A stretch of DNA of 60,180 nt from a virus. Taxonomy: Duplodnaviria > Caudoviricetes. The notes below the pieces were generated by a model, which was not told where the DNA came from, did no database searches, and saw only the letters and a program-made list of their open reading frames with translations. Shown here in pieces: positions 7,534 through 30,190 of this stretch. The stretch is from the IMG/VR virus record IMGVR_UViG_3300047388_000264, positions 1-60,180 of that record. One strand, written 5' to 3'. The first letter of the stretch is position 1. Each line of letters starts with the position of its first letter. Position numbers and translations under genes: made by a program.

Positions 7534-8031
7534 CTACCTGAACAACAGAAACGCCAGCAACCCGCCGCCAACGATCAAGCCTACCGTCATCGGGTCGAGC
7601 GATGTAGGCAGCGCTCCCGCGTCCAGCGTTCCACCGCTAAATCCGGGGTCGTAGATGGCCGGGGGACCGTCCGCGAGCGCCAGGGAGAGCGGATCCGAGG
7701 GACTAAGGCCGGTTGCAGCGGCAATGTTGGCGGCGTAGGTTGCCGGGTCGTTCCCCGCGCTGGCCGGGGCGTATTTGGCCGTGAACTGGTCGATGGTTTC
7801 GCCGCGTGAGGCGTCCAGGTTGATCTGGTTGATGAGCGCTTGGTAGCCAGTCGCGTAATCGGGGAAGATCGCTAGTCCGGTTGCCGGATCTTGGCCAGTG
7901 GCTCCCGGCTGTCCGGCGTACATGAGAGCGCCGGGATTATTGAAACGGTAGGTTGCGCTTCCGGCGTAGTACCCCTCTTGCGTCTGAATCGCCTGAGCGA
8001 CTGTATCGACGGAACCGAGGGAGAGGCGCAT
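7534..8031 (-). CDS. Virion-associated muramidase-like protein with C-terminal membrane anchor
   Basis: AIQTQEG...RFNNPGAL...F.....GYQAL...KYAP...NDPATY lysozyme-like pattern; MRLSLG leader; terminal TM helix. Confidence 0.7.
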   Translation of the reverse strand: MRLSLGSVDTVAQAIQTQEGYYAGSATYRFNNPGALMYAGQPGATGQDPATGLAIFPDYATGYQALINQINLDASRGETIDQFTAKYAPASAGNDPATYAANIAAATGLSPSDPLSLALADGPPAIYDPGFSGGTLDAGALPTSLDPMTVGLIVGGGLLAFLLFR

Positions 8032-8227
8032 GGTTGCCCTAAAACCCCTTCACACCTGCCTCGCGCAGCGCCCGCTTCAGCCGCTCGATCTGCTCCCGCT
8101 GGACCTGGATAATCTGCATCAAGTCCCGCATCTTCTCTGCGTCGGTATACGGCGGTAAGGGATACGGCTCGGGCTCATCGGTCACCGCTTCCATATCTCC
8201 ATTTCGCGTGGCGTGATGTGTTCCACG

Positions 8228-8710
8228 CTATAGGCACCTCGGAGGGTTGACGCTGCTCACGCCGCCGCTTGATTGCAATGTCGCATTATATGGCACCCCC
8301 ACCGTAGCCGGAGGCAACGATTTGGTGAGAATAAGCAGAGGCGCGCAGATCGCCAGCGGCAAGGTGACAGAGGCCGTTCTGCCGTTGCGGTCGCGCACGG
8401 TGATCGCCGGCGTAGCGTTGGTGACTATGGCCACGGAGCCAGCGAGCGCCGAGCCCGAGACCGCTATCCCCGACGGCAGTGCTGTCGCGCTCCAAGCATA
8501 AGGAGCCTTTCCGCCCGTCGCAGAGAGCGGCGCGGAATACGCGGTGTTGATCTTTCCGATGGGTAGGCTGGTGGTAGTGATGGACGGCCCGAGCCTGATA
8601 GGGGCGCTCAGGGTATTGATGAGCTTCCGCCACACAGAAGTAGCCTGTGCCGCCTGTATCGCTATGAATGTCAGGCAGAAGGCGAGGATGAACCGGCGTA
8701 AGCTATTCAA
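8228..8710 (-). CDS. Secreted protein with a putative Ig (He_PIG-like) domain
   Basis: Signal peptide; ITTTSLP.G....YSAPLSATGGKAPYAWS...LPSG plus a second partial repeat. Confidence 0.7.
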   Translation of the reverse strand: MNSLRRFILAFCLTFIAIQAAQATSVWRKLINTLSAPIRLGPSITTTSLPIGKINTAYSAPLSATGGKAPYAWSATALPSGIAVSGSALAGSVAIVTNATPAITVRDRNGRTASVTLPLAICAPLLILTKSLPPATVGVPYNATLQSSGGVSSVNPPRCL

Positions 8711-9003
8711 AACGCCCTCGCTTGTCTCTGGGCGACATAGCCTTATGGATCTGTGCTGCGCGACTCACCGCCTTCCGGCCCTCTTTGCTATGCGGCCCAC
8801 GTCTGCCGGGACCAAGAACCTCCGTAATCCTGCCGCTACGGATATGGAGCGTCCTTGCAATCGTGATGCGCGGGATCTCCTCCGCGTTCATCGCTTGAAT
8901 ACGCTGGATCATCCACGGTGGGAGCAGTTTCACTTCGCGTTCTCTCCTTGCGCGGGCTTCTTGGGCGGCGCGATCTGCTGCTCGATCATGGAAGCACCTG
9001 CCA
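8703..9003 (-). CDS. Hypothetical basic protein, possible HTH
   Basis: IPRITIARTLHIRSGRITEVLG is HTH-like; start uncertain. Confidence 0.35.
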
Positions 9004-9501
9004 TGTGATCGTAACGTCCACCGCGCCCGCTGTGATCGTGGAAATATTCGCAACCGTGGAGGTCAGAGCGAGAATCAGATTGGTCCCAGCGTAACTGACT
9101 ATCGGAACCGTTGGCAACGCGACACTGAAGTTTGTGTTTGCTACCGCTGCCATAAGATCAAAAGGCGTCGAAACGCAAGCTGTGAGCGTTCCAGTGACCC
9201 CCAGTGTTGCCGTGAGGGTAGCTTGCATCCCAGTGAATGCCGTAGTACTTTTGACGATACAGGAAAGTACCATCGCCTTTGCCGGGAGCGCAAAGATGGT
9301 AAGGCTCTGCGTGGTCGCTGCGGACTTCGCTGTTGTGACTACTGTTCCAACCTGATTTGTGATCGTGAAATTCGCACCGGAATTGGCAATCGACCATTTA
9401 GCGGATTGTACGGATGCGCCGGGATTCGTGGGAAAATAGTGAAGTGTTGTAGCTTGAGCAAAACCCATAGAGCTAATGAGAAAAAAGATTACTGCCAGCA
9501 T
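8986..9501 (-). CDS. Signal-peptide-bearing beta-sandwich virion/spike protein
   Basis: MLAVIFFLISSMGFA|Q; Thr/Ala/Val-rich beta strands. Confidence 0.55.
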   Translation of the reverse strand: MLAVIFFLISSMGFAQATTLHYFPTNPGASVQSAKWSIANSGANFTITNQVGTVVTTAKSAATTQSLTIFALPAKAMVLSCIVKSTTAFTGMQATLTATLGVTGTLTACVSTPFDLMAAVANTNFSVALPTVPIVSYAGTNLILALTSTVANISTITAGAVDVTITWQVLP

Positions 9502-11699
9502 CGTTTCACCCCGTTCACTGCCTCGACGTGTGCGCCAGTACCGGACCCGGCACAGGTATTGTCCACTCCACTTGTAACCGTGCAGTCTGAACAGAAAGTC
9601 ATTTTTCCATTGGTAAGCGTTCCGAGGGTAGCAAACGTCAAGACTCTCTCTTGCTGTCGAGCATTGCTATCAAACGCAGCAAGTACTGTAGTGCCATCCG
9701 AATCTAACAGTTCCATAACGTCGGCTGACTGCATGGCGACCCGTTGAAGTTTTTCCGTCACGTCGGTGGTTTTCAGGCTCACTACATGGAGGTCAGCCGT
9801 GGGAGCGTCGATATTGATTCCGAATCTTCCACCGTCCCCGTCCATAGTTCCCCCAGAGACTACTGTAAATGCATAAGGTATGTTTCCATCTGGATGTGAT
9901 GAACCGAGCGCCAACATGATTTCGCCAGCGTTCAAGGGAAAGAGTTGTCCAGCGCCTCCGCGATACGCCCCTAATAAAATCGCGGCATTGTCGGTTGTGG
10001 CCAGAGCAGAAGTGCCTAATATGTTACCAATAATTTGAGAACCGTAAGCCTGAATCGCCATGCTGCTATTTGGCAAAGTGTAACCATAGAAAAAAGCTCC
10101 CCCTTGTCCTGGGTATGCTTCTGCAATTGTTGCTACTTGTGCTGGTCCGTTCGCCGGCATCGTCATATCTTGAATTTGGTAGCCACCGAAATTATTAGCA
10201 GGATTGCTGAGAAAGGTCCACTCAGTGTTATTCAAGGTTCCAGCGCTACTCGTTAAATTTACAAATGGAAATCCTAGCGCGTCGTACAATGTTCCACCAG
10301 TCATGTTTACTCCAAAAGGCTGGCTACAAAGCCCCAGTCCCGCGTCGGCGGTATTGTCCAGATAGGTCGTAGTAGTGTTATCCGCGATGGTTGCTAGGAG
10401 AGCCTGGCAGGTGGAAGATGCTGCGATCGTATAAGCAACAGTCCGATAAAGTTTGCGCGCCGTGGTTCCCGCTGGACCCAAGGGAATCGCGCTAACCTGC
10501 ACCTTTCCGTCCATCGTCTTATCCGCAACCGTAACCGTCGCGGAGTTGAAAAGCATGTCGGTTTCTCCGCGCGGCATCACAAATGTCACTGCGTAATCGT
10601 GACTGCCGTTGTCCACGTTCCCCGCTCCCGCACCGGCTAGAGCAGTAGTAACTGCGGTGGGCGAATCGACTTGATTGGCTTGAAAATTGCCGAAGTTACC
10701 GATATTCCCCACGCCCGATTTGAACGTGCTCGAAGTTCCGTAAAGTTGCACGTCGCCAGCCGAGCCAGCGGGGAGAGTGCCGGAGCTTACGAACGCCTGC
10801 CATTGCGACATATCCACCGTATAAGTTCCACCACCCCCGTTGGTGCTAAGAACAATTCCGATCACTTGCCCCGAGGTTGGATAGGTTGCTCCAGCATCAG
10901 TACAATCACCCGCCACCGACGCGCTAATCTGGACGTAGTGCCCCGCCGTAGTTGCTCCATCGAACACACACCCATGTTGACCGGCTTCCTGGATCACGGC
11001 GCTCCCGGTCGTCCCCGCGCCTGAGTCCACGATCCCAATCGCCCCTCCAGTATCTCCAGCCCCGGAGATCACCGCCTTAGATGGTGCGCCCGTGAGTTTT
11101 GCGAGCTTGCTTACCGTTGTGCCCGTCATGGCGGCATTGGGAATCGTTTCGCATACCCCGGTGCCAACCAGAGTTCCGGTGGTGGTGATCGGCCCTCCGC
11201 TGATTCCGCATCCGGTATTGATGGAGGTTACCGAACCGCCCTTGTTGCTCACCGCCGCGCTGCTATTCCGAAACCCGTACAGCACGCCCGTAAGAGTCCC
11301 TGTGCCCGTTGCCGCCACATTCACCCGTACCCACGAAATATCCGCCGTGCCGTTCACCGCCTGAAGCGAGCCGCCCGTATTGCTCACAATCGGATTCACG
11401 AACCCGGTCGAAATCGTGCCCGCGAAAGATCCGAAGGACACCGTAGTGTTCACGCTCGATCCGCTCTGGAGCGTCACGGACACGCCGGTCATGCCGGTAC
11501 TTTGGTACATGAGCGTCCACGCCGCGCACCCCTTCTGCCGGTTATCGCCAGGGCCGTTAGCGGTAGCGGTCACCGGATAGTTCCCCGCTGCGGTGAACGT
11601 GAACGGGATGAAGCAATCCGGCTGAATGAGGGTGGAGCTTTGGGCGTGGAGCGGGGCGATCAGCAGCGCCCACAAGTAAAATATGTTGCGGAGTTTCAT
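9489..11699 (-). CDS. Large spike / receptor-binding protein candidate with signal peptide (736 aa)
   Basis: Likely start ATG 11699 (AAAGGA SD): MKLRNIFYLWALLIAPLHA|Q; Gly/Thr/Ser-rich multi-domain beta protein. Confidence 0.65.
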   Translation of the reverse strand: MKLRNIFYLWALLIAPLHAQSSTLIQPDCFIPFTFTAAGNYPVTATANGPGDNRQKGCAAWTLMYQSTGMTGVSVTLQSGSSVNTTVSFGSFAGTISTGFVNPIVSNTGGSLQAVNGTADISWVRVNVAATGTGTLTGVLYGFRNSSAAVSNKGGSVTSINTGCGISGGPITTTGTLVGTGVCETIPNAAMTGTTVSKLAKLTGAPSKAVISGAGDTGGAIGIVDSGAGTTGSAVIQEAGQHGCVFDGATTAGHYVQISASVAGDCTDAGATYPTSGQVIGIVLSTNGGGGTYTVDMSQWQAFVSSGTLPAGSAGDVQLYGTSSTFKSGVGNIGNFGNFQANQVDSPTAVTTALAGAGAGNVDNGSHDYAVTFVMPRGETDMLFNSATVTVADKTMDGKVQVSAIPLGPAGTTARKLYRTVAYTIAASSTCQALLATIADNTTTTYLDNTADAGLGLCSQPFGVNMTGGTLYDALGFPFVNLTSSAGTLNNTEWTFLSNPANNFGGYQIQDMTMPANGPAQVATIAEAYPGQGGAFFYGYTLPNSSMAIQAYGSQIIGNILGTSALATTDNAAILLGAYRGGAGQLFPLNAGEIMLALGSSHPDGNIPYAFTVVSGGTMDGDGGRFGINIDAPTADLHVVSLKTTDVTEKLQRVAMQSADVMELLDSDGTTVLAAFDSNARQQERVLTFATLGTLTNGKMTFCSDCTVTSGVDNTCAGSGTGAHVEAVNGVKRCWQ

Positions 11700-11709
11700 G
11701 AAGTCCTTT

Positions 11710-12018
11710 CTAGCCGGTTGGGTTGCCTTCCATTTGTGATTGCCTTCCGGCCTGAAAATTCGTATCTCGTTCCGATGCCGCCGCCTTTTCCTGTTGTTTG
11801 CCAACTTCGATTGACGCCTTACGAACCTCGGCCACAAGTTCATCCTTCAGATGGTTCGTGTTCTGCTCAACCTTAGCCACTTGCGTCATTGCTTCCTTCG
11901 CGTGTTGCGATGCCTTGTAGGAAAAGTACGCGGCGACCATTCCGCCCACTGCTCCGAACAGCCCCGGCACACCTACGGTAAGCCCGCGTATCAGTTCGAT
12001 CTGTACGGCATCGGTCAT
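11710..12018 (-). CDS. Membrane protein with TM helix and coiled coil (holin-like)
   Basis: N-terminal hydrophobic helix followed by a heptad-like charged segment. Confidence 0.5.
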   Translation of the reverse strand: MTDAVQIELIRGLTVGVPGLFGAVGGMVAAYFSYKASQHAKEAMTQVAKVEQNTNHLKDELVAEVRKASIEVGKQQEKAAASERDTNFQAGRQSQMEGNPTG

Positions 12019-12031
12019 TCATCGTTCCCTT

Positions 12032-12496
12032 TCAGCGCGGCCAAAAGAATCCCCTTAGCCCACAGATAATTTTACCCGTTCCCGGCGCTGGCAAGCTCCC
12101 GGTTGTGTTTGGGGCCGTCACGATATAGCTCACGGTGTTACCCGAATAGATCCTCAGCCCGCCCTGAATGTACTGGTACCACTTGACTGTTCCCAACTGT
12201 ACCAGAATGTTTCCGCAGTCGCGCAAGAACCGCGTCGCGTTCAGCGTGAGATTCACCGCCACGCGCCACGCGAGATCGCCGGAGCCATCGACAAAGCCGC
12301 CCAGCGTGAAGGCGTTGAACTGGCCAAGAATGATGCCGTCGTAACCGATAGGCACTTGAAACGAGAACACGGTCACGTCTCCCGCTGCCGGGGCAGGGAG
12401 AGGGATCGCGAAGCGCGGGGAGAACTGCACGGCCCCGGACGGCGGCTCCACTGGCCGATAGACTTCTGTGAGCGGATTGGCGGCAACGGCTCCCAT
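12032..12496 (-). CDS. Single jelly-roll-like minor capsid/penton candidate, paralog of 14149-14823
   Basis: Shares VPxGYDGxI, GFVDGSGDxxWR, RFLRDxGN, GGLRxYS and GxxWPR with the upstream paralog. Confidence 0.6.
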   Translation of the reverse strand: MGAVAANPLTEVYRPVEPPSGAVQFSPRFAIPLPAPAAGDVTVFSFQVPIGYDGIILGQFNAFTLGGFVDGSGDLAWRVAVNLTLNATRFLRDCGNILVQLGTVKWYQYIQGGLRIYSGNTVSYIVTAPNTTGSLPAPGTGKIICGLRGFFWPR

Positions 12497-12502
12497 AAGC
12501 GG

Positions 12503-14134
12503 CTACGCCGGCAACCCCCACTCTCGCTCATCCATCTTGAAACACGCTGGCAGTTTCGCGCAGCCCAGCCGTTCGTAGTCGATGGTCGAGTACAGCCGGA
12601 AGTCGCGCGCAAGGCAGTTGTCAAACTCGTTAGGGATGTAGGGATTCGGGCGACGCCCCGCCGCGCCAGTGGGCGGAGTAATGATGATGCTACAAGTGAC
12701 TACGGCAGTCAGACCGTTGGCATCTGTAACCGTGACGGTATAGGAATACGGCCCCTGAAGCTGAGGGATGCCGGAAATCACTCCGGTTGTGGCATTCAGG
12801 GTTAAGCCGGGCGGAAGCGCCCCGCCCGTAACGGCAAACGTAAATGGCCCCGTGCCAGTAGCGATCAGTTGCGCGGAAAAGAAGCTGCCAATCGTGCCGG
12901 TATTGGCAAGCGGGCAGGCGAGCGTAGGCGGCGTCCCCTGCGTGAAAATCGTGTACGCAACCGTGCTATGCGGCGTGAACTCCGTGTTGGTCTGCAACGT
13001 CCAGCTACCGTCTGATTTTTGAAGCGCCATCCCCGATAGCTGATATGGTGGATGAGTAGAGGCTGGTTGTCCGGGATACGGAGTTACGGTCGAATCAAAA
13101 AACGACACGGGTGCGCCGAAGGTTGCGCCGTTGTAGGTCGAAAGCCAGATGTAGGAATTGCCGCCTACGCCAAAGGCGATTACGTCCCAGAACACGGTCG
13201 CATTGCCAGCTATGCTCTCCGCCGCTACCAAATCGCGCGCCTCATACGAATTGCTGGGGATGGTGACCGCGCCTCCAGGATCGAGGTTGATCACACTCCA
13301 CGTGGGCGTAACAAGGCTGTCCCCGATCAGCACGAAAGGCTCAATGATCCCATCGGCCCCTACTAACTCAGAGAACGGAAAGAAAATCTTGCCGCCCGAA
13401 AGCAGCATCAGACTTGTGCCGTTTTCGACCGCATCCGGTGGGTTGACCGTCCAGGCGATAGATGGCGCGCCTACGACTCCACCCGCTGAAATCTGGAAAT
13501 AATAAAAGTCGAAGACGGTGGGTCCGCCATGCTGATCCTGGCAGATACAGTGAATCTTGCCGCTAGCCTCCATCGCCATGTCGGACGGAACGATAGCGTT
13601 GGCCGTGATAACATTGGTATCCGCGCCCCAAACGCCAGCCGTCCAGGTTGCGTAGTCCACTTTCGTTCCGGCACCGCCAGCAGCGAACACAATCCAGCGT
13701 GTTCCACCGGGCTGGACCTTAATCAAGATGGAGGTGAGCGTCCCGAATAGGTTGATGGTGGGGTGTGGTGCACTCAACCCACCGTAGGAATCAGTGGACG
13801 CATCGAAAGTTTGCAGCAGAGGTGGACGATTTGCGGTCTTCGATGCCACCCCAACAAAATAGATCACCGTTCCGCTTCCCGGATAGAATGCGTTTGCCGG
13901 TCCTTCGATCAAGCCAGAGGAACCGCCTACGATGCTCCACGTGGCGCGGCCATCGCTACTCTTGAGAACTTCTACGGCTTGACCGGCGAATGGCTCCAGC
14001 CATGTGTACCACGCACCATTGATGAACCACGGACCCGCAGATACGCCCGTACCAGCCTGCCCGGTCTGGGACATTTGCGCGAAGTTGGTCGCATCCGGCG
14101 CGACGGGAGGCAGGGTGACAAGAGGAGGAGCCAT
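12503..14134 (-). CDS. Beta-propeller/sialidase-like protein with an Ig domain (543 aa), vertex/spike candidate
   Basis: Likely start ATG 14134; Asp-box-like KSSDGRATW and STYNGATF; He_PIG-like LPPGLTLNATTGVISGIP. Confidence 0.6.
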   Translation of the reverse strand: MAPPLVTLPPVAPDATNFAQMSQTGQAGTGVSAGPWFINGAWYTWLEPFAGQAVEVLKSSDGRATWSIVGGSSGLIEGPANAFYPGSGTVIYFVGVASKTANRPPLLQTFDASTDSYGGLSAPHPTINLFGTLTSILIKVQPGGTRWIVFAAGGAGTKVDYATWTAGVWGADTNVITANAIVPSDMAMEASGKIHCICQDQHGGPTVFDFYYFQISAGGVVGAPSIAWTVNPPDAVENGTSLMLLSGGKIFFPFSELVGADGIIEPFVLIGDSLVTPTWSVINLDPGGAVTIPSNSYEARDLVAAESIAGNATVFWDVIAFGVGGNSYIWLSTYNGATFGAPVSFFDSTVTPYPGQPASTHPPYQLSGMALQKSDGSWTLQTNTEFTPHSTVAYTIFTQGTPPTLACPLANTGTIGSFFSAQLIATGTGPFTFAVTGGALPPGLTLNATTGVISGIPQLQGPYSYTVTVTDANGLTAVVTCSIIITPPTGAAGRRPNPYIPNEFDNCLARDFRLYSTIDYERLGCAKLPACFKMDEREWGLPA

Positions 14135-14148
14135 AAGCGCTGCTACTA

Positions 14149-14823
14149 CTATCTTGGCCAGTACCATCCGCTTATCCCCGCGATAATATTCCCGTTCGCA
14201 ATAGCCGCCGCTGGAGCGACTGCGGCGTACACACTGACCAAATCCCAACTATAAACTCGCAGCCCACCGCGCGGAATCGGCGATGGAAACTGAAACGAAC
14301 CGATGGACACCTGGACGTTGCCGTGATCGCGTAAGAAGCGCCCGCCCGTTCCGGCAGGGTCCACGAGATAATCCGACGCGAGCCGCCATGAGATATCGCC
14401 GCTGCCGTCCACAAAGCCTGTGCCGGTGAACTCAAAAATGATCTCTGTGATCACGCCGTCGTAGCCGAGCGGTACGCGCTCCTGAAGCACGATTGTATCG
14501 AGGCCATTGAATCCTGGGCCGGGGACCTGAAACGCTGAGAGTGGCTGACTGCCGATGGGCCGGAAGCGCCTGCCGTCAGGCGGCATAGAGATCCACGGAG
14601 GCGTCTGGTAATAACCGCGCCCACCGGGGTAGTTGTGCTCGATCCCGCCGCACGCTAGTAGGTTCATCCACTGCGAGAGATCCCGACTCAAGCAGTTGTC
14701 CCACACGTTTGCGCCATACATCTGGCTGCGCATCGGCGGCACGTTGGGCGTGATCGGATTCGCCGGGTTAGGCGGTAGGATGTTCAGCGGGACCACGTGC
14801 AGGTTGGGATTGTAGGGGATCAT
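14149..14823 (-). CDS. Single jelly-roll-like structural protein (224 aa)
   Basis: Start ATG 14823 by ATGA overlap; paralog of 12032-12496; ends in three tandem TAG codons. Confidence 0.6.
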   Translation of the reverse strand: MIPYNPNLHVVPLNILPPNPANPITPNVPPMRSQMYGANVWDNCLSRDLSQWMNLLACGGIEHNYPGGRGYYQTPPWISMPPDGRRFRPIGSQPLSAFQVPGPGFNGLDTIVLQERVPLGYDGVITEIIFEFTGTGFVDGSGDISWRLASDYLVDPAGTGGRFLRDHGNVQVSIGSFQFPSPIPRGGLRVYSWDLVSVYAAVAPAAAIANGNIIAGISGWYWPR

Positions 14824-16371: not shown

Positions 16372-16382
16372 TCAAGGCCCCC

Positions 16383-17625: not shown

Positions 17626-17660
17626 GTTATGTTTTCTCCTCTTCTCTTTCTTTCACCCGG

Positions 17661-18527: not shown

Positions 18528-18553
18528 GTCTGCTCAATCTCTCCGCTTGGCCC

Positions 18554-21799: not shown

Positions 21800-21828
21800 G
21801 CGGTCACCGCCTGATACACTGACGAAGA

Positions 21829-22984: not shown

Positions 22985-22987
22985 AGT

Positions 22988-23266: not shown

Positions 23267-23445
23267 CACTTTCTCAGCAACGGCCACAGTTGCGAGAGAG
23301 CCCAAAAGAACAAGCCCGCGCACAAGAACGCTGAATAATACGGATACTGCGGAGCCGGAGGAGGAGGGACGGGCCACCAGCGCGACCATGCGCCGATAGC
23401 AAAGATCAGGCATGCCAGCACTAAAAACACAACAGCGAAATCCAT
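23266..23445 (-). CDS. Two-TM membrane peptide (59 aa)
   Basis: GGGAGAG SD; MDFAVVFLVLACLIFAIG...FFWALSQLWPLLRK. Confidence 0.6.
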   Translation of the reverse strand: MDFAVVFLVLACLIFAIGAWSRWWPVPPPPAPQYPYYSAFLCAGLFFWALSQLWPLLRK

Positions 23446-23459
23446 AACAGTTCTCTCCC

Positions 23460-23618
23460 TTATCGGGGTATAGCCCCGACTACCAACAAAATCACAATGA
23501 CCAACACAACGAGTCCCAACCCGCCACCCAAGCCGTACCCGCCGTAGACGTGATAACCGCCACCGCCGAACAGGATCAGCAAGAGCAAGATCAGCAGAAC
23601 AAGGCCGAGAGGACTCAC
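23460..23618 (-). CDS. DUF3309-like Gly-rich two-TM peptide (52 aa, not in ORF track)
   Basis: GGAGG SD; MSPLGLVLLILLLLILFGGGGYHVYGGYGLGGGLGLVVLVIVILLVVG. Confidence 0.6.
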   Translation of the reverse strand: MSPLGLVLLILLLLILFGGGGYHVYGGYGLGGGLGLVVLVIVILLVVGAIPR

Positions 23619-23620
23619 GC

Positions 23621-24103
23621 TTACCTCCGTCTCCGTCCACCGCTTCCACCGAGAAGCCCCGGCAGAATCATCGCTGCTGCAATCGCCAGCGGAATCGCGT
23701 AGGGGATACCCATGATCGGCGCGCTCAAGATCCCCATGTAGTTCCCACTGCTAAAATCCGTCTGGATGGCCGCGAAGTCCGCCGCGATGTCGCCCATCCC
23801 CATGCCGTTGAGCGACCCCTGTGCGCACGTACCGCAGCATCCCACGCCGGTTCCGAGCGGGCGCACGTTGCCGCTCACGTACGCCGCGACAGGGTTCATG
23901 TCTCGATTGGGAACACTGAAACCCTGCGTTGCCAGGATCTCACCGATGCCCATGCGGTAGTCCATCGTCGCTTGCATATCACGGTCAGGAACCGAGAAGC
24001 CCTGCGTCGTGAGAATGTCGCCCATGCCTGCGTGCCGCGCGGCGAAGAAGCCGGGAGGCAGCTTGTGAATCCCCGGAGCCGGATGCAAATTCAGTTGTGC
24101 CAT
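23621..24103 (-). CDS. Virion membrane protein with two GDI-x-T-QGFSVP(D/N)RDM repeats
   Basis: Start ATG 24103 (GAGAGGAG); two internal repeats; C-terminal TM plus GGRRRR. Confidence 0.65.
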   Translation of the reverse strand: MAQLNLHPAPGIHKLPPGFFAARHAGMGDILTTQGFSVPDRDMQATMDYRMGIGEILATQGFSVPNRDMNPVAAYVSGNVRPLGTGVGCCGTCAQGSLNGMGMGDIAADFAAIQTDFSSGNYMGILSAPIMGIPYAIPLAIAAAMILPGLLGGSGGRRRR

Positions 24104-24113
24104 AAATCTCCTC

Positions 24114-24422
24114 TCACTTCTTGAACGCAAACACCGCGAGCGCCACGAAACCAACCAACAGCAAACCGTTCAAGTTGATCCCGCTCCCGAAGGCATTCGC
24201 CCCGCCAGCCGCCGCCGCTCCTACGTCTGTCGCAATTCCGTGCGCTGCTGAACCCACCGCGCCGATCACGCGCGGATCGTAGGGATTCATGCACGCCAAA
24301 TATGGCAGGCAATCCGGCGAACCCCAGCCCGCGTAAATCGAATCCAGAAACGTGCATGGGTCCGCTCCGCAGTCCACGCCGCCCGCTCCGGTATCTCCGA
24401 GACTCAAGGTGCCGAGGTTCAC
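24114..24422 (-). CDS. Small Cys-containing tail-anchored membrane protein
   Basis: MNLGTLSLGD, CGADPCTFLD; C-terminal TM plus KK. Confidence 0.65.
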   Translation of the reverse strand: MNLGTLSLGDTGAGGVDCGADPCTFLDSIYAGWGSPDCLPYLACMNPYDPRVIGAVGSAAHGIATDVGAAAAGGANAFGSGINLNGLLLVGFVALAVFAFKK

Positions 24423-24856
24423 CGCCGCCCTCCAATCATCATGAGAGCGAAGACCACAACACCGAGAATCAAGTACGGAGTAGTGCCTACTTGTGTCGGG
24501 ACGACGTTACCGACATGCAAATCAGCTTGAACTTGCGCAACCGTGGTGGTCGGACCCGCGTAAGTATCCCCGGTCGGAAGCGTGTCGCCCGCCTTCACTA
24601 TCGCCGAAGGATTTGACCAATCCACCACCGAAGGAACCGTGGACGTTCCGCCACAAGAAACAATCGTATTGCCGTTAGCATCAATGCCGCCCGGAATGCA
24701 CGGGGGCTCCGCAGTCGGAGCACCGGCGTTGTACGCAGCCGCGCATTGTTGCCACGTTCCGCAATCACTGGACGGAGAGAAGAAATCGAGGAAGCCGCAC
24801 GGATTTGCGCCGCACGTCAAGTTCAGATCGCCGATCCCGACAGCGCCGAGCCTCAT
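24419..24856 (-). CDS. Small Cys-containing tail-anchored membrane protein, paralog of 24114-24422
   Basis: MRLGAVGIGD, CGANPCGFLD; C-terminal TM plus RR. Confidence 0.65.
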   Translation of the reverse strand: MRLGAVGIGDLNLTCGANPCGFLDFFSPSSDCGTWQQCAAAYNAGAPTAEPPCIPGGIDANGNTIVSCGGTSTVPSVVDWSNPSAIVKAGDTLPTGDTYAGPTTTVAQVQADLHVGNVVPTQVGTTPYLILGVVVFALMMIGGRR

Positions 24857-25065
24857 ATCGGCAACCATCCCTTCTTCCACGCGTACCACCCGGCCAAAGC
24901 GAGCAGCGCGATCCACACCAGCGACGATGAACCGCTGGCCGGTGCCGCAACCGTAGCAACCGGCACAACCGCGAGCGCGCCGGGGTTCGCGTGCATCGAC
25001 GTGGGCGTTAGTCCCATCGTCAACTGATCGCTGCCAACAATCGGCATGAGCGCGAGACTGTTCAT
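24853..25065 (-). CDS. Tail-anchored membrane peptide (70 aa)
   Basis: ATGA overlaps; LVWIALLALAGWYAWKKG. Confidence 0.6.
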   Translation of the reverse strand: MNSLALMPIVGSDQLTMGLTPTSMHANPGALAVVPVATVAAPASGSSSLVWIALLALAGWYAWKKGWLPI

Positions 25066-25271
25066 CCGCGCTTTTTCCTCTTGAGCATTCCGCCGATCAG
25101 GATGGCCGCACCCGAAAGCCAGAACCACGTGATGTCAGGACACACACCAGAAACCGCATTCGCAGCCGCTACGCCCGCGCCCGCCGTGAGAGGCACAGCC
25201 GTAGGGCATCCGATCTGTACCTGATCCGCCGCGTTACACGTGGGTTCTGCTGACCAGCCGAGACACATCAT
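25062..25271 (-). CDS. Tail-anchored membrane peptide (69 aa)
   Basis: MMCLGWS...WFWLSGAAILIGGMLKRKKRG; ATGA overlaps. Confidence 0.6.
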   Translation of the reverse strand: MMCLGWSAEPTCNAADQVQIGCPTAVPLTAGAGVAAANAVSGVCPDITWFWLSGAAILIGGMLKRKKRG

Positions 25272-25906
25272 TGGATGTACCTGTTCACCTTTCCGCGCTG
25301 CCCCGCGCTGTATCCGCCGCTGAAACCCCGATTGCCGAAGCTCATCGAAGCCGGAGCCGGAGCGACCGGAGCGACTACCGGCCCGTAGTTGGGAACCGGC
25401 ACGATGTCGCCCACGCCGGAAAGCCCGACGCTGAAGTTCAGGGGCGCAGCGGGAACCCCGCCCACCATGATCTGCTCCGACCATGCGCCCGCGTTTGCCG
25501 CTGACCAGCTTCCATTGAGGCTGAAGCGCCCGCTTGCGTCGGTCATCCCAAGTTGAGTAACCACGCCTCCGCCTACCGGCGTGCCGTTCTGTGCGGCCAC
25601 AATCGTAACGGGTGCGTTCGGTGGGCCGATGATCGAAAGATTCCACGTGTCCCCGGCCTTGAAGATCGAGCTTCCGCTATTGTCGTGGAGCAAAACTTGA
25701 ACCTGTCCGGTGTTGCCTCCGGCTGGCTGCGAGGTGCCAGCGGGGAGCATCGTACCTACCGGAAGTATCGGCGTAGGCGCAGCGCCCGCTGCCAGTGCAG
25801 TGCCACCGAACCACTGCGCCCACATGCCGCTGGACACGAGGTACTGATACAGCATGTAGCCACCTGCGCCCAACAGTGCGAACTTGATGAGATCGCCGGT
25901 TTTCAT
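25268..25906 (-). CDS. N-anchored virion protein with an Ig-like middle domain and LSGVGDIVP motif
   Basis: N-terminal TM; beta domain; motif shared with the core protein. Confidence 0.65.
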   Translation of the reverse strand: MKTGDLIKFALLGAGGYMLYQYLVSSGMWAQWFGGTALAAGAAPTPILPVGTMLPAGTSQPAGGNTGQVQVLLHDNSGSSIFKAGDTWNLSIIGPPNAPVTIVAAQNGTPVGGGVVTQLGMTDASGRFSLNGSWSAANAGAWSEQIMVGGVPAAPLNFSVGLSGVGDIVPVPNYGPVVAPVAPAPASMSFGNRGFSGGYSAGQRGKVNRYIQ

Positions 25907-26037
25907 CGCTGATCCTTTTCACGCTCGCTTTGCTCGATCATTTCGATGAACCTGTAACCGGCGAAGGTGATCGCTCCGACTACGAGGCCCAGGAACGGTA
26001 CGAAGAAAAGCCAGTCTCTCAATGTGACGTGTCCCAT
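25903..26037 (-). CDS. 44-aa single-TM peptide
   Basis: MGHVTLRDWLFFVPFLGLVVGAITFAGYRF; ATGA overlap at 25903-25906. Confidence 0.5.
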   Translation of the reverse strand: MGHVTLRDWLFFVPFLGLVVGAITFAGYRFIEMIEQSEREKDQR

Positions 26038-26043
26038 AAAAAC

Positions 26044-26337
26044 TCAATCCTTGAACGCAAACCACGCGAGCCCGCCCAAAACCAACAGCGCCCACACCGT
26101 ATTTTGGCTGACCCATTCCGCAATCGGACTGCACGGGTCGGGAGTAACTGGCGTGGGGTTCACGATGGAGGGGAGCCGCTGAACGAGATCGGTGGGCGTG
26201 ATTCCGGTAGTCGTGTCGCCCAAGCCAGCGAGCGCGGTCAAGGGCAGCGACGGCATCCGCATCATGGCGACGCCGGGCATTTGCTCCGGTAGCGGCATCC
26301 CGGTGTAGGAACGGCTTTCAATCGTGGTTCGATCCAT
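26044..26337 (-). CDS. Tail-anchored membrane protein with LAGLG motif
   Basis: GAGGAG SD; LAGLGD; C-terminal TM. Confidence 0.65.
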   Translation of the reverse strand: MDRTTIESRSYTGMPLPEQMPGVAMMRMPSLPLTALAGLGDTTTGITPTDLVQRLPSIVNPTPVTPDPCSPIAEWVSQNTVWALLVLGGLAWFAFKD

Positions 26338-26347
26338 TACGCTCCTC

Positions 26348-26953
26348 TCATTTCTTCAGCATCATCACAGCGAGCACTGCGCCCGCGATCAGCATCCAGT
26401 TTGGAATCCCCGCAACCGAAGACTCCGATAAAACCGCTGGCATCGTGAAGCCAGCGGGCGCGGCCCCGGCAACATTACTTATTTGTGTTCCGACATTCGG
26501 AGTGATCGTCTGCCCTCCTGCGATCTGCTGAACCGTGGGCGTCGCCGGAGCACCCGGCGCAACCATCCCACTCGAAGGCATGATCGTTGAAATAATGGGC
26601 GGATTCTGAAACGGCGTGTTCAGCGGCACTGGCGCTTGTGTGATCGGCGGTAGCCACGGCGGACGGTAGTTCGGATCTTGCGGGTCGATGAACCCTTGAC
26701 CCTTGGGCGGCAAGTACTGAGCATTCGCCGGATTGATGAGCGACAGATACACCGGATCGGTCGGATTGCCGCCCCATGCGAGAAAAGTTAACCACGGTGG
26801 CGGATTGGTTTCGAGGTAGTTCATGTACGCCGAGTAAGCATTCGATGCGCTTCCGGCGTCCTGTGGGCAATACGAGTACCACGCGACTTGCAACGGATCA
26901 AGCGTACCGCTACCTGCCGGTGGGCCGGTGCAGTAACCGAGGGACATCCTCAA
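26348..26953 (-). CDS. Pro-rich tail-anchored membrane protein
   Basis: MSLGYC start; GIPNWMLIAGAVLAVMMLKK anchor. Confidence 0.65.
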   Translation of the reverse strand: MRMSLGYCTGPPAGSGTLDPLQVAWYSYCPQDAGSASNAYSAYMNYLETNPPPWLTFLAWGGNPTDPVYLSLINPANAQYLPPKGQGFIDPQDPNYRPPWLPPITQAPVPLNTPFQNPPIISTIMPSSGMVAPGAPATPTVQQIAGGQTITPNVGTQISNVAGAAPAGFTMPAVLSESSVAGIPNWMLIAGAVLAVMMLKK

Positions 26954-27774
26954 TTGCCACCTCCCAAAACCAGCGCGGCGACGATGAGAGCGCCACCGAT
27001 CAGCAACGGCTTCATATTCGCGCTACCGATCACGCCGCCCGATGCGGCCTGCTGTTGCTGCTGGTACGCCGCCGCCGAAACAACTGAGATTGTTCCGTCT
27101 GGATTCATGACGGAAACCGTAGGCGGCGCGGAAGTGTCCAATTGCCCAGGTGGAGGCGGATCGGGCACCACGTTCGGATCATTTCGTATCGGATCTAAAT
27201 AACCGATCCACCAGTTCCAGCACGGCCCCGTTCCCCATCCATCCGGCCCGTTGTGAAAGTCGCACGAACCTTCTTGCCGGTTGTGGATGCAATTCACGCC
27301 CGCCGTTCCAAGCGTCGGATCGCTGCACGCTTTCACAAGCGCGTTCCAAGCCGTATTGAAATTGTTGATGGCCGCAAGTTGCAGCGAGCGGTAGTGAACC
27401 GGCGCATCCAAATAATGATGGAGGTTCTGTGCGAGATACGCCTCCACTGTGTTTGCGTCCTGCGTTGCCTGCACGCACGTTTGACCGCAACCGGAGAACA
27501 CGCCCGCGATGGCGATGCCTACAGCCGTCAACCCCGCGATGGCCGCGCCGATGGGACCGGCGAGCGCGAACTCCGGTAGGATCGCTCCCATGCCAGCGAG
27601 TCCCGCGAGAATGCCGCCCGTTGTGGCCGCGCCCTGCGCCGCGATTGCCGCGATGCTGGTCGGATCTGACATATCGCCGATGTCTCCGAGCGACGATGAA
27701 ATATAGGGAGCGTACCGCGAGAACCCCGGTATGGGCGTGAGCGGGTGCGCGTACTCTGGCATGGATACCCTCAA
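26950..27774 (-). CDS. Tail-anchored membrane protein with hydrophobic hairpin and Cys-rich domain (entry protein candidate)
   Basis: SLGDIGD, then a long Ala/Gly hydrophobic stretch, six Cys and a C-terminal TM. Confidence 0.6.
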   Translation of the reverse strand: MRVSMPEYAHPLTPIPGFSRYAPYISSSLGDIGDMSDPTSIAAIAAQGAATTGGILAGLAGMGAILPEFALAGPIGAAIAGLTAVGIAIAGVFSGCGQTCVQATQDANTVEAYLAQNLHHYLDAPVHYRSLQLAAINNFNTAWNALVKACSDPTLGTAGVNCIHNRQEGSCDFHNGPDGWGTGPCWNWWIGYLDPIRNDPNVVPDPPPPGQLDTSAPPTVSVMNPDGTISVVSAAAYQQQQQAASGGVIGSANMKPLLIGGALIVAALVLGGGN

Positions 27775-28184
27775 CGCTTCCGCCTCCGTGCCGTCTTGCG
27801 CTTTGCCTTGCGCTTTCGCGGGTTCACCTTCGCGCTTCCACCCAGTTGCGCGTGGCCCAAAACATCCTGCGAGACAAGCGCCTGTACTTTCCCGTCGCTA
27901 GTGATGCGAACCTTGGCGTTGATAAACTTGTTGCGCGGGATCGCGAGCGTCAGATTGCGTTTGCGTTTTCGGTTGCTCATGCGTTTCCTCACGATAGCCT
28001 TGTGTTCCGGCGACAACCGCTCGTAGTACTTGCCGTATGCCGCCTCTGGATCTTTGTCTTTGGAGCGAGATGATTTTTTTGGTGTCGCCCTTCCTGAACG
28101 GTCAATGTGATAGGTCCGGCTTGTCGAGAACAAGCCGCCGCGCCCGAACCCGAGAAAGTTTCGCTTGCGTTTGCGTTTCGCCAC
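27771..28184 (-). CDS. Lys/Arg-rich DNA-binding core protein
   Basis: KRKRKRNF, RKRKRNL, KVNPRKRK. Confidence 0.65.
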   Translation of the reverse strand: MAKRKRKRNFLGFGRGGLFSTSRTYHIDRSGRATPKKSSRSKDKDPEAAYGKYYERLSPEHKAIVRKRMSNRKRKRNLTLAIPRNKFINAKVRITSDGKVQALVSQDVLGHAQLGGSAKVNPRKRKAKRKTARRRKR

Positions 28185-28185
28185 A

Positions 28186-29010
28186 TCAGCGTCTCCCGCT
28201 CATCGTCATCAGCACTACTGCGCCCACCAGCAACAGAACCATTGGCGAACTCAGCGCGCCAGCGATACCGGAGCCGCTAACACTCAACTGATTCTGCGGA
28301 AAGCCGGCGGCTACCGTCGCCGTCTGCGGAGATCCGTAAATGTTTCCGCTCGCCGAAACCGAGCCACCCTGCGAAACCGCAAGCGTGCGCGTCAGTGCGT
28401 TCGAGGAGGACGCGATCAGGTTCGCCCAGTCCGCCGCGCTCATTGTTCCGGTTGTGCCGTCACTGAATACCACGGGGTAGGGAGATTCTGTAATACTACC
28501 GCCGCTGGTGTCCGTGGGCATCATGCAATCGGCAGGATTGTAATCGGGCGCGGAGGGATCGACACACGAACCGAGCCCGGTAAGCGTGCTGGACGGTCGA
28601 TTCATCCACGTGATGACCGGCCCGCCTGAAGTCTTGACTACCTTCGCCCAGATGTAGCCCCACGGAGTATGCTGCAAGTGCGCGTCACCCGGAGCGCCTA
28701 CCGGGCGCGGCGGCAACTGCGGAGCGATCAGCCCTTGCGAAATCAACCCTTGAATATAGGTGGGCATTCCGCCGCCTGTGTACGCCGGAAGTGGTGCGGC
28801 TGTCGGCGGCATAGGAATAGGATCAATCGGCATCAGCGTGGACGCTAGGTCAACTCCGAGGCCGCTCACACCGCCGCCCGTTACCGGCGCAAGGTTCTGG
28901 TGAAGCCGATGCCAGCCCCATGCGTTCCCGCGCGGAATGTGCTGCGGGGTGCGAAGCTCTGCGGGCAAGCTGTGATTGCCGGGGACATCGGAGGGAACTT
29001 GCATTCTCAT
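28186..29010 (-). CDS. Tail-anchored virion membrane protein with VSGLG and LTGLG motifs
   Basis: ATGA overlap at 29007-29010; C-terminal TM plus GRR. Confidence 0.6.
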   Translation of the reverse strand: MRMQVPSDVPGNHSLPAELRTPQHIPRGNAWGWHRLHQNLAPVTGGGVSGLGVDLASTLMPIDPIPMPPTAAPLPAYTGGGMPTYIQGLISQGLIAPQLPPRPVGAPGDAHLQHTPWGYIWAKVVKTSGGPVITWMNRPSSTLTGLGSCVDPSAPDYNPADCMMPTDTSGGSITESPYPVVFSDGTTGTMSAADWANLIASSSNALTRTLAVSQGGSVSASGNIYGSPQTATVAAGFPQNQLSVSGSGIAGALSSPMVLLLVGAVVLMTMSGRR

Positions 29011-29231
29011 GTGGCTGTGCTCGATCCTTTCAGGACACACGAACCGCCAGCGGCCAGGGTGGAATCAGGCACCCAATCGTAACCCTGCGGGCACTGATGC
29101 ACTACGCTCCCGGTGCTCGCTCCGAGCGGACCAACGGGCGGCGTACTCGCAGCGGCTTGCTGTTGATGCTGGTAGAAAAGGTAGCCCCCGGAGCCAAGTA
29201 CGCCGAGCATTACGAGATCGCCGGTGTCCAT
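29007..29231 (-). CDS. Small N-anchored membrane protein
   Basis: N-terminus resembles 25268-25906 (MxTGDL...LG.GGY..YQ); CPQGY...C. Confidence 0.6.
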   Translation of the reverse strand: MDTGDLVMLGVLGSGGYLFYQHQQQAAASTPPVGPLGASTGSVVHQCPQGYDWVPDSTLAAGGSCVLKGSSTAT

Positions 29232-29507
29232 TTAATTTCTGCGCCTCCGTGCCAATGCCTTCATGCCGTGCGGATGTTTTCCGGGTTCTTCGCAGACAAC
29301 CGCATGCCGAATATCGTAAGGATGAATCGACTCGTGGCCGTCCGTGATTTTTGTTGTCCCGTTCTTTACCCACGCCGGAGTGCAGTGACCACCGTAGGCT
29401 TTTACCCAAACCGTGTGATGACCGCGCGGTGCGCGACTTGAGCGCGGATGACGCGGTTTAGGATTCGGCATGCGAGTTATGCGATGGCGACGGCGCGCTT
29501 TCGTCAT
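29232..29507 (-). CDS. Basic Arg/His-rich protein (91 aa)
   Basis: MTKARRRHRITRMPNPKPR; ATGA overlap with the protease gene. Confidence 0.55.
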   Translation of the reverse strand: MTKARRRHRITRMPNPKPRHPRSSRAPRGHHTVWVKAYGGHCTPAWVKNGTTKITDGHESIHPYDIRHAVVCEEPGKHPHGMKALARRRRN

Positions 29508-30190
29508 ACCCGACCCTCGATCATCTTCCACCCGAACCAAACCGTTGCCGCGAGCGCCGCGAGCGAGATCAGCGAACACGAACCGTCCGTGCTCCACTCC
29601 TTCAGCTTGCCGAATTTATTTGGCACTTCCCACCCCGGATAATCGCCGTGGCTGGTATCCATCGGCACGCGCTCGCCGTTCGGGTACGCCACGGTGTAGA
29701 CGTGCGAGTACTGATCGGGCGCGATCTCCGACGCGGCAACCGTACAGAACTTGCACGGAATCCCCTGAGTCATGAGCAGCGCCGCGCAGTACATGGCGAA
29801 GTCGTCACAGTCGCCGGTCGCCACGCCCGATTCGATGTAGCGCGCCATGTCCACGGGACGGATGATGACCTCAACCAAATCGTCAGGGGAGCCACCCGCG
29901 AAACCGAGGCCGATACTTTCGTCGCGCTGGAAGTGGATCGAGTTCTTGACGTGATCGAAGGCGCGGGCAAGGATTCCTGAAGGTGACGACTTCGGAACGC
30001 CCGCGAAAACTTCCGCCGCGTACGCCTTGAACTCAGGAGTAGCCGCGTCCGCGCTGGCGCGCTCTCCCATGATTCGCAAGGTCCGCGCTACCTGATCGTC
30101 CGGCACGTTCCCCAGTTCCGTGACGCTAAAACGTCCAGACCCAAGTAGGGCATGTGTTGCGTTCCCGCTTGCTGCGGAGGCAAGGCGCAT
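29504..30190 (-). CDS. Transglutaminase-fold cysteine protease, candidate maturation protease, with C-terminal TM
   Basis: GDCDD (catalytic Cys), SHVY (His), PMDTS (Asp); first gene of the structural operon. Confidence 0.8.
   Translation of the reverse strand: MRLASAASGNATHALLGSGRFSVTELGNVPDDQVARTLRIMGERASADAATPEFKAYAAEVFAGVPKSSPSGILARAFDHVKNSIHFQRDESIGLGFAGGSPDDLVEVIIRPVDMARYIESGVATGDCDDFAMYCAALLMTQGIPCKFCTVAASEIAPDQYSHVYTVAYPNGERVPMDTSHGDYPGWEVPNKFGKLKEWSTDGSCSLISLAALAATVWFGWKMIEGRV

Follow-up and report, generated by a model that had tools for sequence, protein, structure and literature searches.

A ~60-kb viral genome with a conserved particle module and no recognisable tailed-phage morphogenesis genes, from an apparently undescribed lineage linked to Acidobacteriota

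Background

What kind of particle is encoded by a virus genome in which none of the usual tailed-phage genes can be recognised? The question is raised by the operon at positions 7,534-30,190 of the IMG/VR virus record IMGVR_UViG_3300047388_000264 (positions 1-60,180; this whole stretch of 60,180 nucleotides is called the window below). The viruses of soil bacteria known so far are almost all tailed phages, and the Acidobacteriota are among the most abundant and least tractable of the soil phyla. A preliminary description of the window had proposed a complete, circular genome of a tailless, probably membrane-containing virus with a jelly-roll capsid. The explanation that we regard as the best one, and as moderately probable when taken as a whole, is a temperate virus of soil Acidobacteriota that belongs to an undescribed lineage and has a tailless, lipid-containing particle.

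Relatives and the conserved gene set

The window was compared with three further virus records (G001, G002 and G003), with a prophage of a Bryobacteraceae genome and with a divergent prophage of the genome G193. When 114 window open reading frames (ORFs) were searched by tblastn, the minus-strand block at 7.5-30.2 kb was found to be common to the window and G001-G003 in the same gene order. Outside this block, the genome shares with all three relatives a protein of 568 amino acids (aa), a J-domain protein and little else; the integrase is common to two of the three and a protein of family phrog_6247 to one, whereas the replication genes are not common to the window and the three relatives. A conserved block with a few additional genes, set against replication genes that are not shared, indicates a lineage defined by its particle module, and the replication genes are exchanged freely among its members. 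The principal genes are as follows.

17005-17625, minus strand: 206-aa protein, candidate major capsid protein, the most conserved protein of the lineage
16383-16796, minus strand: 137-aa single-domain protein, candidate capsid or penton protein, paralogue of the domains of the 276-aa protein
15541-16371, minus strand: 276-aa protein, candidate double-domain capsid protein with two homologous beta-rich domains of ~135 aa
31029-32735, plus strand: 568-aa core protein, divergent from the operon, conserved in G001-G003 and the Bryobacteraceae prophage
37827-38216, minus strand: J-domain (DnaJ-like) protein (Pfam DnaJ, E = 2.9e-17), present in G001-G003
3031-3714, minus strand: tyrosine recombinase/integrase (Pfam Phage_integrase, E = 1.5e-35; PHROG integrase families), 51% identical in G002

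Metagenome protein clusters number 174 for the 206-aa family, 105 for the 276-aa family and 29 for the 137-aa family. The module is still recognisable in the divergent G193 prophage, where the gene order is basic membrane protein, 206-like, 137-like, 196-like and anchor-like protein. A search of 50,697 GenBank phage records gave no match to the 206-, 276- and 568-aa proteins (for the first two even at E <= 1), 72,556 plasmid records likewise contain no match to the 206-aa protein, and no description of the lineage was found in the full-text literature. Proviruses of a Bryobacterales 'group (i)' are reported and classed as Caudoviricetes (PMC11924767); they may or may not belong to the present lineage. 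Membership in a large, undescribed viral lineage, which the preliminary description had claimed, is borne out by the cluster counts of the three families and by the 206- and 276-aa proteins being unmatched in phage records. Judged from sequence relationships, this is a real, widespread and undescribed viral lineage of hundreds of sequence clusters.

Search for tailed-phage genes

Out of about 113 predicted ORFs, 56 different ones were scanned against Pfam and/or PHROGs; this set covers all coding-strand ORFs of at least 243 aa except a 272-aa ORF that spans the junction of the genome ends, and the rest are nearly all shorter than 170 aa. Families of terminase, portal, HK97 capsid, tape measure, sheath, tube and baseplate were not matched as such by any of the 56. 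Three PHROG labels that name tailed-phage functions have other sources. The 'terminase large subunit' label of phrog_2666 comes from a HerA-type ATPase at 47154-48635, the tape measure family phrog_2276 is matched solely via the lysozyme-like domain of the proteins at 7534-8031 and 37271-37636, and the tail protein family phrog_8763 matches the immunoglobulin (Ig) domain of the protein at 12503-14248 (E = 3.7e-4).

Six-frame searches with the Pfam families Terminase_6N, TerL_ATPase, Phage_portal and Phage_capsid found each of them in none of four genomes (the window and the three relatives), with positive controls. The 135-aa part of the junction ORF that lies at 9-413 had no tblastn match in the phage records. 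The earlier statement that no terminase, portal, HK97 capsid, tape measure or tail gene is recognisable is thus upheld by the 56-ORF scan and by the six-frame searches, and the lineage as a whole appears to be devoid of detectable tailed-phage morphogenesis genes.

Completeness of the genome

The two ends of the record overlap by 89 bp with 100% identity.

1-89, no strand: overlap between the ends of an assembly that is circular or terminally redundant, copy at 60074-60162

The final 18 bases (60163-60180) duplicate the bases immediately before them and interrupt the otherwise exact end overlap; this tail is probably an assembly artefact (stutter), and the interruption may explain the label 'linear' in IMG/VR. 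Once the tail is trimmed, the ORF that begins at 59671 stays open across the junction for 272 aa with no stop. The three relatives measure 60,646, 58,934 (G002) and 61,475 (G003) bp and are each rated 100% complete, with direct repeats at the ends of G002 (127 bp) and G003 (97 bp). The 276-aa family comprises 105 clusters; in 16 of these the longest contig measures 53.8-67.3 kb, and no cluster exceeds this range. The window is probably a complete viral genome of ~60.1 kb, circular or circularly permuted. The end overlap, the junction ORF and the complete relatives of about 60 kb agree here with the preliminary description, which had called the genome complete and circular.

The G+C content along the window is 55-62% and no tRNA genes were found in it. 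Scans of 7.0-26.9 kb for promoters (5 found, 7.8 expected) and terminators (23 found, 18.8 expected) stayed at background.

Candidate capsid proteins

The 206-aa family is strongly constrained, its 52 aligned members being 50-73% identical to the window protein with 43 invariant columns. The 206- and 137-aa proteins are encoded by adjacent genes, and the divergent G193 prophage, too, retains this pair. In the 276-aa protein, the N-terminal and C-terminal halves align with each other in hhalign at 98.5% (E = 2e-15), and the 137-aa protein aligns with the two halves at 98.2% and 97.7%; the 276-aa protein is thus a tandem duplication of a domain of the 137-aa type. In G003 (16804-18085) the 276-aa protein is split into two ORFs, and in the G193 prophage no double-domain protein was found, a single copy of the domain being present there: a 137-like protein (contig 2, ~252-254 kb; E = 2e-8) with an N-terminal Cys-ribbon. 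With hhalign below 1%, the 206-aa protein has no relation to the 137/276 domain, and the same result rules out a 'GARR'-like C-terminal ending common with the 206-aa protein as a sign of homology. A further core protein is encoded beside these genes.

14820-15410, minus strand: 196-aa conserved core protein with orthologues in 7 other genomes or loci

It had no Pfam, PHROG or PDB match.

A crude propensity profile describes the three capsid-candidate families as beta-rich (strand 0.39-0.50, helix 0.04-0.17) and free of long helices; the 137-aa domain shows roughly nine strand segments. For the homologue P0063, whose model in the ESM Atlas has a predicted template-modelling score (pTM) of 0.67, the closest named neighbours by structure are clusters that carry Cu2_monoox_C, P_proprotein, PPC and FlgD_ig (TM 0.34-0.43), which we take to be beta-sandwich or jelly-roll-like domains. 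By language-model features, the named families that come closest, both to P0063 and to P0171, a homologue of the 206-aa protein, are the capsid families PM2 P2 and PRD1 P3 (0.76-0.78).

Membrane, core and enzyme genes of the operon

The remainder of the conserved block codes mainly for membrane proteins, basic proteins and enzymes.

29504-30190, minus strand: transglutaminase-like Cys protease with a C-terminal membrane anchor (Pfam Transglut_core), first gene of the operon
22988-29040, minus strand: small membrane proteins in a block, many of which carry one C-terminal helix followed by a short basic tail
26950-27774, minus strand: 274-aa multi-helix Cys-rich membrane protein, 42-50% identical in G001-G003
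27771-28184, minus strand: 137-aa Lys/Arg-rich soluble protein, 32% Arg + Lys
22020-23201, minus strand: 393-aa basic protein whose C-terminal ~220 aa form a core domain
19132-21799, minus strand: 753-aa methyltransferase and glycosyltransferase-like protein, with a 190-aa hexapeptide acyltransferase (Pfam)
18554-18976, minus strand: 140-aa beta-rich protein with orthologues in 4 other genomes
17661-18527, minus strand: 288-aa candidate DNA-condensing, membrane-tied protein, protamine-like in its N-terminal half and hydrophobic in its C-terminal half
7534-8031, minus strand: lysozyme/transglycosylase-like protein with a C-terminal membrane anchor (phrog_2276, phrog_873 and phrog_7182, lysin domain only), last gene of the late operon

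With a strict threshold (Kyte-Doolittle of at least 1.6 in a 19-residue window), 15 of the 37 listed ORFs of the block pass, among them the 276- and 206-aa proteins, which are probably soluble beta proteins; with a looser value of 1.4, 19 of 30 genes pass. By these hydropathy profiles the operon appears to encode at least 13 small membrane proteins. The many conserved small membrane proteins, together with a membrane-anchored basic protein, are the ground for reading the virion as probably tailless and lipid-containing. That basic protein, of 288 aa, contains 44% Arg + Lys within its first 150 residues (isoelectric point 12.0) and has orthologues in all relatives and in G193. The core domain of the 393-aa protein also ends proteins of 448-739 aa in the relatives, and its profile had no significant PDB match.

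The protease match to Transglut_core (E = 7.5e-4, 20.2 bits) lies below the 23-bit cut-off, and the Cys-His-Asp triad (GDCDD / SHVY / D-SHG) is invariant in all four orthologues. Within 19132-21799 there are matches to Methyltransf_11 (E = 4.9e-7), to Hexapep (E = 2.8e-8) and, in the 753-aa protein, to Glycos_transf_2 just under its cut-off (E = 7.1e-5; 23.2 bits against 23.3); the C-terminal ~500 aa of that protein are conserved in G002, G003 and the Bryobacteraceae prophage. The 140-aa protein has a match to BclA_C that is also below cut-off (E = 0.011). Orthologues of the lysin at 7534-8031 are present in G001, G003 and the Bryobacteraceae prophage, and a soluble paralogue lies at 37271-37636 of the window.

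The preliminary description had assigned to the operon a Cys protease, small membrane proteins, protamine-like proteins and several beta-sandwich proteins. The first three classes stand; a beta-sandwich is supported for one He_PIG Ig domain, the other cases being beta-rich by crude prediction.

Two sequence patterns recur in these proteins. The motif G-hydrophobic-G-D-hydrophobic-hydrophobic-x(3-4)-[FY]-x-V-P occurs in the products of 17661-18527 (at the end of the 288-aa protein), 23621-24154 and 25268-25906 and in their G001-G003 orthologues, otherwise unrelated membrane or core proteins; its G-h-G-[DE]-h core (h, hydrophobic) is found eight times in minus-strand ORFs of the window and once in plus-strand ORFs. 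The motif could be a docking peptide or mark a site for a protease. Asn-Pro, for example as K/R-K/R-N-P, repeatedly interrupts the basic stretches of 17661-18527, 22020-23201 and 27771-28184 when these are inspected by eye, and in the 448-739-aa homologues of the relatives Asn-Pro sites separate small modules whose domain order varies by genome.

Spikes, anchor domain and variable end of the operon

Between the capsid candidates and the end of the operon lie genes for candidate vertex and surface proteins.

14149-14880, minus strand: 243-aa protein ending in an 'anchor' domain of ~130 aa, candidate vertex (penton-like) protein (BLASTP families)
12503-14248, minus strand: 581-aa candidate receptor-binding spike with a Pfam He_PIG Ig-like domain (E = 9.2e-14) and an N-terminal hydrophobic segment
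12032-12496, minus strand: 154-aa protein consisting of the anchor domain (BLASTP families)
8228-11843, minus strand: variable block of beta-rich proteins of 160, 171 and 784/736 aa with N-termini like Sec-type signal peptides

The short form of the anchor protein (243-aa type) is present once per genome examined, and an anchor-like ORF is found in the divergent G193 prophage (E = 9.5e-9). In G001 the domain is the C-terminus of a 708-aa spike-like protein, to which the C-terminal part of the 581-aa protein is 45% identical; in the relatives it terminates large variable proteins of 576-911 aa. Such an occurrence on large variable proteins is what would be expected of a vertex plug for exchangeable receptor-binding parts. 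The 154-aa protein has no Pfam or PHROG match. Upstream of its Ig domain, the 581-aa protein contains what we take to be a look-alike of the sialidase-type Asp-box (S-x-D-x-G-x-T-W).

No Pfam or PHROG family was found for the proteins of 8228-11843, and conservation of the large one is limited to the first ~120 residues past its hydrophobic N-terminus. The corresponding variable ends of the operons (8228-11843 in the window, 36841-41175 in G001, 17569-22389 in G002 and 7691-14227 in G003) encode large Ser/Thr/Gly-rich proteins with signal-peptide-like starts. In G001 this end includes a long run of ORFs whose N-termini resemble, by eye, glycosyltransferases and sugar-modifying enzymes.

Genes outside the operon and the packaging question

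The 568-aa core protein is basic at its N-terminus and contains a CxxC...CxxC ribbon, a Q/P-rich linker and a middle part that is helical over a long stretch; it has no nucleotide-binding (P-loop) motif. Its family comprises 242 representative clusters. It had no match in Pfam, PHROGs, PADLOC, PDB or the phage records; the family profile met designed helical proteins in the PDB at non-significant scores, and a Pfam scan of 42 members gave scattered single hits only. The J-domain gene is located inside the structural module of the Bryobacteraceae prophage.

Among the real genes of the window, a Walker A motif occurs in DnaB and in the HerA-type ATPase only, and in none of the conserved genes. 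The HerA-type ATPase lies 17 kb away from the module, beside a transposase.

46161-48635, minus strand: genome-specific pair of an IS1595-family transposase (46161-47096) and a HerA/DUF87 ATPase with a C-terminal helix-turn-helix (47154-48635)

It was rejected as the packaging enzyme of the lineage, since tblastn did not find it in any of the three relatives, and its absence there marks it as accessory cargo. Its two matches in phage records are unverified, unannotated gut contigs, and PADLOC gave a generic HerA only. P-loop proteins of ~560 aa in the relatives were likewise rejected as motors, as they carry what we take, from motifs recognised by eye, to be UvrD-like helicase signatures. The lineage therefore appears to have no recognisable packaging motor. 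This speaks against simply placing the window with the families named in the preliminary description: most of these have an FtsK/HerA packaging ATPase in common, which in the present lineage is not conserved, being present in one of four genomes.

The replication and recombination genes of the window include a DnaB helicase, a replication initiator, a YqaJ exonuclease and an SNF2-methylase fusion, and the phrog_6247 protein is 43-46% identical to tailed-phage proteins. The fusion, of 828 aa (42199-44685), joins an SNF2-type helicase to an N6/N4 DNA methyltransferase. A second fusion (58113-59588) combines a glycosyltransferase with a sulfotransferase (Sulfotransfer_4, E = 4.4e-34), and the product of 38816-39445 belongs to a PHROG family labelled cysteine dioxygenase (E = 7.6e-35); these last two could be auxiliary metabolic genes.

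Host and lifestyle

The module is present in a 358-kb Bryobacteraceae contig of a metagenome-assembled genome, at ~2-26 kb of the contig, and its divergent form in a 1.8-Mb contig of the other Acidobacteriota genome, G193. Hits of the 206-aa profile came from 6 of 301 Bryobacteraceae genomes and, in a set drawn from the whole phylum, from 2 of 401, with the genome at the centre of the search included in both counts. The only sequencing run that contains the capsid region is a soil metagenome, which may be the source sample itself, and no RNA sequencing run containing this region is listed. Integrated modules and an integrase argue for a temperate lifestyle with acidobacterial hosts; a temperate virus of soil Acidobacteriota, a reading that reaches the window itself by extension, is accordingly part of the overall explanation that we hold to be moderately probable. 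On the Bryobacteraceae contig (G004 contig 13, 53652-53728) a tRNA-Val gene lies ~27 kb past the conserved module; it is a possible attachment site, and the other end of the prophage may run off the contig start.

A proposed particle

The particle suggested by these genes would have a shell made of the 206-aa protein and of three homologous beta-rich domains of ~135 aa, one free (137 aa) and two fused (276 aa). Its vertices would be occupied by the proteins that have the ~130-aa anchor domain in common at their C-termini, this domain serving to plug into the shell the variable parts that bind receptors, the 581-aa protein with its Ig domain being an example. The particle would also include a membrane with at least 13 small viral proteins, many of them tail-anchored. 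The protamine-like protein would condense the genome, assisted by the soluble basic proteins, and its hydrophobic C-terminal half would tether the DNA to the membrane. As no packaging NTPase is conserved, the DNA may be enclosed by condensation and co-assembly, and not pumped into a preformed shell. The membrane-anchored transglutaminase-like Cys protease would mature precursors, the J-domain protein may recruit host Hsp70 for assembly, the glycosyl-, methyl- and acyltransferases of the operon could modify components of the virion or envelope, and the membrane-anchored lysin would open the wall. A bolder version, in which a shell of three still recognisable ~135-aa domain copies (free, in tandem fusion or split, depending on the member) and the 206-aa protein, a protamine-like membrane anchor and the lack of a packaging motor would make this a virus new at the realm level, is possible and on balance doubtful.

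Alternative explanations

Several observations weigh against the explanation that we favour. Its weakest step is the fold of the shell proteins: that the candidate beta-rich capsid proteins are jelly rolls is plausible, and in our estimate falls just on the likely side. The Atlas scores lie under the tool's own bar (0.9; TM 0.5), those of the language-model neighbours in a range that is often due to chance, and are leads only; the automatic taxon labels of the Atlas clusters are Uroviricota. Seven family profiles found nothing significant among PDB sequences. The 276-aa profile gave four sub-threshold matches, all to parvovirus capsid proteins (best E = 0.042, VP2), which count as a weak lead toward a jelly roll, and other non-significant matches among the seven were echovirus VP3 (E = 0.68) and a tailspike (E = 0.05). 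Pfam P2 and P3 were unmatched in 56 members of the 276-aa family, which gave scattered single hits only, hhalign of this family against PM2 P2 yields 0.2%, and the structural proteins of PM2 and of the tailless phage SSIP-1 gave nothing against the lineage profiles in hhalign or hmmsearch. DUF87 was found in one of four genomes (the window only) and FtsK_SpoIIIE in none of the four. The window is labelled 'linear' in IMG/VR with a CheckV completeness of 57%, and the count of two among 401 Acidobacteriota genomes means that the host link rests on few cases. Finally, a cytoplasm-facing basic domain on a membrane anchor suits an enveloped or wrapped core no less well than a vesicle of the PRD1 type, and a particle that assembles in the cytoplasm would not be expected to have parts with Sec-type signal peptides, as several proteins of the variable end have.

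The same lineage could thus form an enveloped or wrapped nucleoprotein particle, or have a novel capsid fold, in place of a jelly-roll icosahedron with an internal vesicle; the signal-peptide proteins would then be outer spikes, and the tail-anchored and basic proteins would line the interior of the envelope. The membrane anchoring of the protamine-like protein, with its basic half cytoplasmic by the usual topology rules, and the Sec-type signal peptides on variable proteins of both the window and the relatives would fit such a particle, as would the lack of a conserved packaging ATPase and of any significant link to solved capsid proteins. Set against this are at least five conserved soluble beta-rich proteins encoded in a cluster, with a duplicated domain and a reusable anchor, that resemble a shell with vertices, and the Atlas leads toward beta-sandwich and PM2/PRD1 capsid families; moreover, enveloped or pleomorphic DNA viruses of prokaryotes have, as far as we are aware, much smaller genomes and few soluble structural proteins. 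We regard this alternative as a serious rival, although unlikely on the whole.

A tailed phage (Caudoviricetes) in which the genes for head, packaging and tail have diverged past recognition by hidden Markov models would be compatible with the ordinary phage-type DnaB, YqaJ and integrase, with the resemblance of the phrog_6247 protein to tailed-phage proteins (43-46% identity), with the Uroviricota labels and the low CheckV completeness, and with the long helical region of the 568-aa core protein. The replication modules are not conserved among the relatives, and so are uninformative about the virion. No hallmark family was found in the 56 ORFs or in the six-frame searches of the four genomes, the conserved set is without a P-loop protein, and the most conserved structural proteins are beta-rich and of 137-276 aa, which we take to be too small and of the wrong class for HK97 or portal proteins; this makes a diverged tailed phage very improbable. 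Hardly more probable is a non-viral, plasmid-like or integrative element in which the conserved block would be a cell-surface or vesicle-based transfer apparatus. It could accommodate the many membrane and signal-peptide proteins, the wall-degrading enzyme, the DNA-binding basic proteins and circular replicons of ~60 kb able to integrate, and the capsid fold of the candidates is itself drawn from sequence leads. It is opposed by the lack of relaxase-like, VirB4/VirD4-like or other conserved NTPases (relaxase families were not searched individually), by the 206-aa protein being unmatched in the plasmid records, by a size held at 54-67 kb (16 of the 105 clusters, those with longest contigs above 50 kb), which fits a head-full or capsid limit, and by the records being in a virus collection and having terminal repeats.

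Implications

A temperate virus with a tailless, lipid-containing particle thus remains the explanation that we prefer, and the interpretation given in the preliminary description is supported in part. The lineage combines a fixed genome size of ~60 kb and a link to Acidobacteriota with particle genes unlike anything described, and automatic pipelines appear to class it, too, among the tailed phages. If it is indeed a membrane-containing jelly-roll virus, it would be by far the largest one of bacteria and the first to lack the packaging ATPase of that lineage. If the duplicated domain is a jelly roll, the duplication would be young enough to be read in the sequence, so that the origin of double jelly-roll capsids would become testable, and the lineage would offer a living snapshot of a transition from single to double jelly roll that is otherwise only inferred. 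If the fold is a different one, the virion would be of a new type. Either way, about seven proteins and the Bryobacteraceae lysogens are concrete targets.

Comparison with known systems

Two eukaryotic systems offer analogies. In adenoviruses, arginine-rich core proteins condense the DNA, a Cys protease cleaves precursors at short glycine-containing motifs, and fibres are held in single jelly-roll pentons. The resemblance to the candidate functions of the present operon is one of function only: adenoviruses are eukaryotic viruses with no membrane, with a packaging ATPase and with a different protease fold, and no homology was found. Comoviruses have one coat protein of two fused jelly-roll domains and one of a single domain, so that each unit contains three related domains, where picornaviruses have three separate proteins. 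This arrangement resembles the 276 + 137 layout and the split form in G003, again as an analogy only, comoviruses being small RNA viruses with shells of ~30 nm that could not hold 60 kb of DNA.

The kinds of virus closest to the present lineage are tailless with an internal membrane; the lineage resembles them in outline, but neither a conserved ATPase nor sequence similarity to them was found. SSIP-1, an unclassified membrane-containing tailless phage with a circular genome of 43,788 bp, has a halophilic Bacteroidota bacterium as its host. It shares with the present lineage a large genome, an integrase and a run of structural proteins of 130-260 aa. It differs in having a structural ATPase, gp40, and its structural proteins did not match the lineage profiles (hmmsearch best E = 0.033; hhalign at most 1.6%). 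The consulted part of one source states that SSIP-1 encodes two capsid protein types and that P23-77 has two types as well, each a single beta-barrel (PMC6356626).

In the Helvetiavirae (Matsushitaviridae with the Thermus phages P23-77 and IN93, Simuloviridae, Sphaerolipoviridae), two small capsid proteins are encoded side by side, as the candidates are here, together with many small membrane proteins. Members are temperate or episomal, and their particles are tailless with an internal membrane, a feature suggested here by gene content. The present genome is 3-4 times larger and has no conserved FtsK/HerA ATPase. It encodes three paralogous domains and an unrelated 206-aa protein in place of two capsid proteins, and in addition protamine-like core proteins, a Cys protease and a J-domain protein; the profile searches of the PDB gave no sequence link to solved chains of this group. 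According to the portion of the ICTV profile that was available, Simuloviridae have two single jelly-roll capsid proteins and genomes of 16-19 kb. The preliminary description had considered the genomes of the named families to be much smaller than 60 kb, a contrast that is only partly right given the 43,788 bp of the unclassified SSIP-1. The Varidnaviria in general are characterised by jelly-roll capsid proteins, and 'most of them' share the packaging ATPase, in the words of an excerpt of PMC8328091.

Likeness to the Tectiliviricetes (PRD1, PM2) lies in a double-domain candidate of ~270 aa (PM2 P2 has 269 aa) encoded beside a single-domain paralogue, in the manner of a double jelly-roll capsid protein and a single jelly-roll penton, and in a block of membrane proteins with a membrane-bound lysin. 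The conserved set of the present lineage includes no ATPase and its genome is 4-6 times larger. We know of no double jelly-roll protein whose halves are recognisably homologous, whereas those of the 276-aa protein still are.

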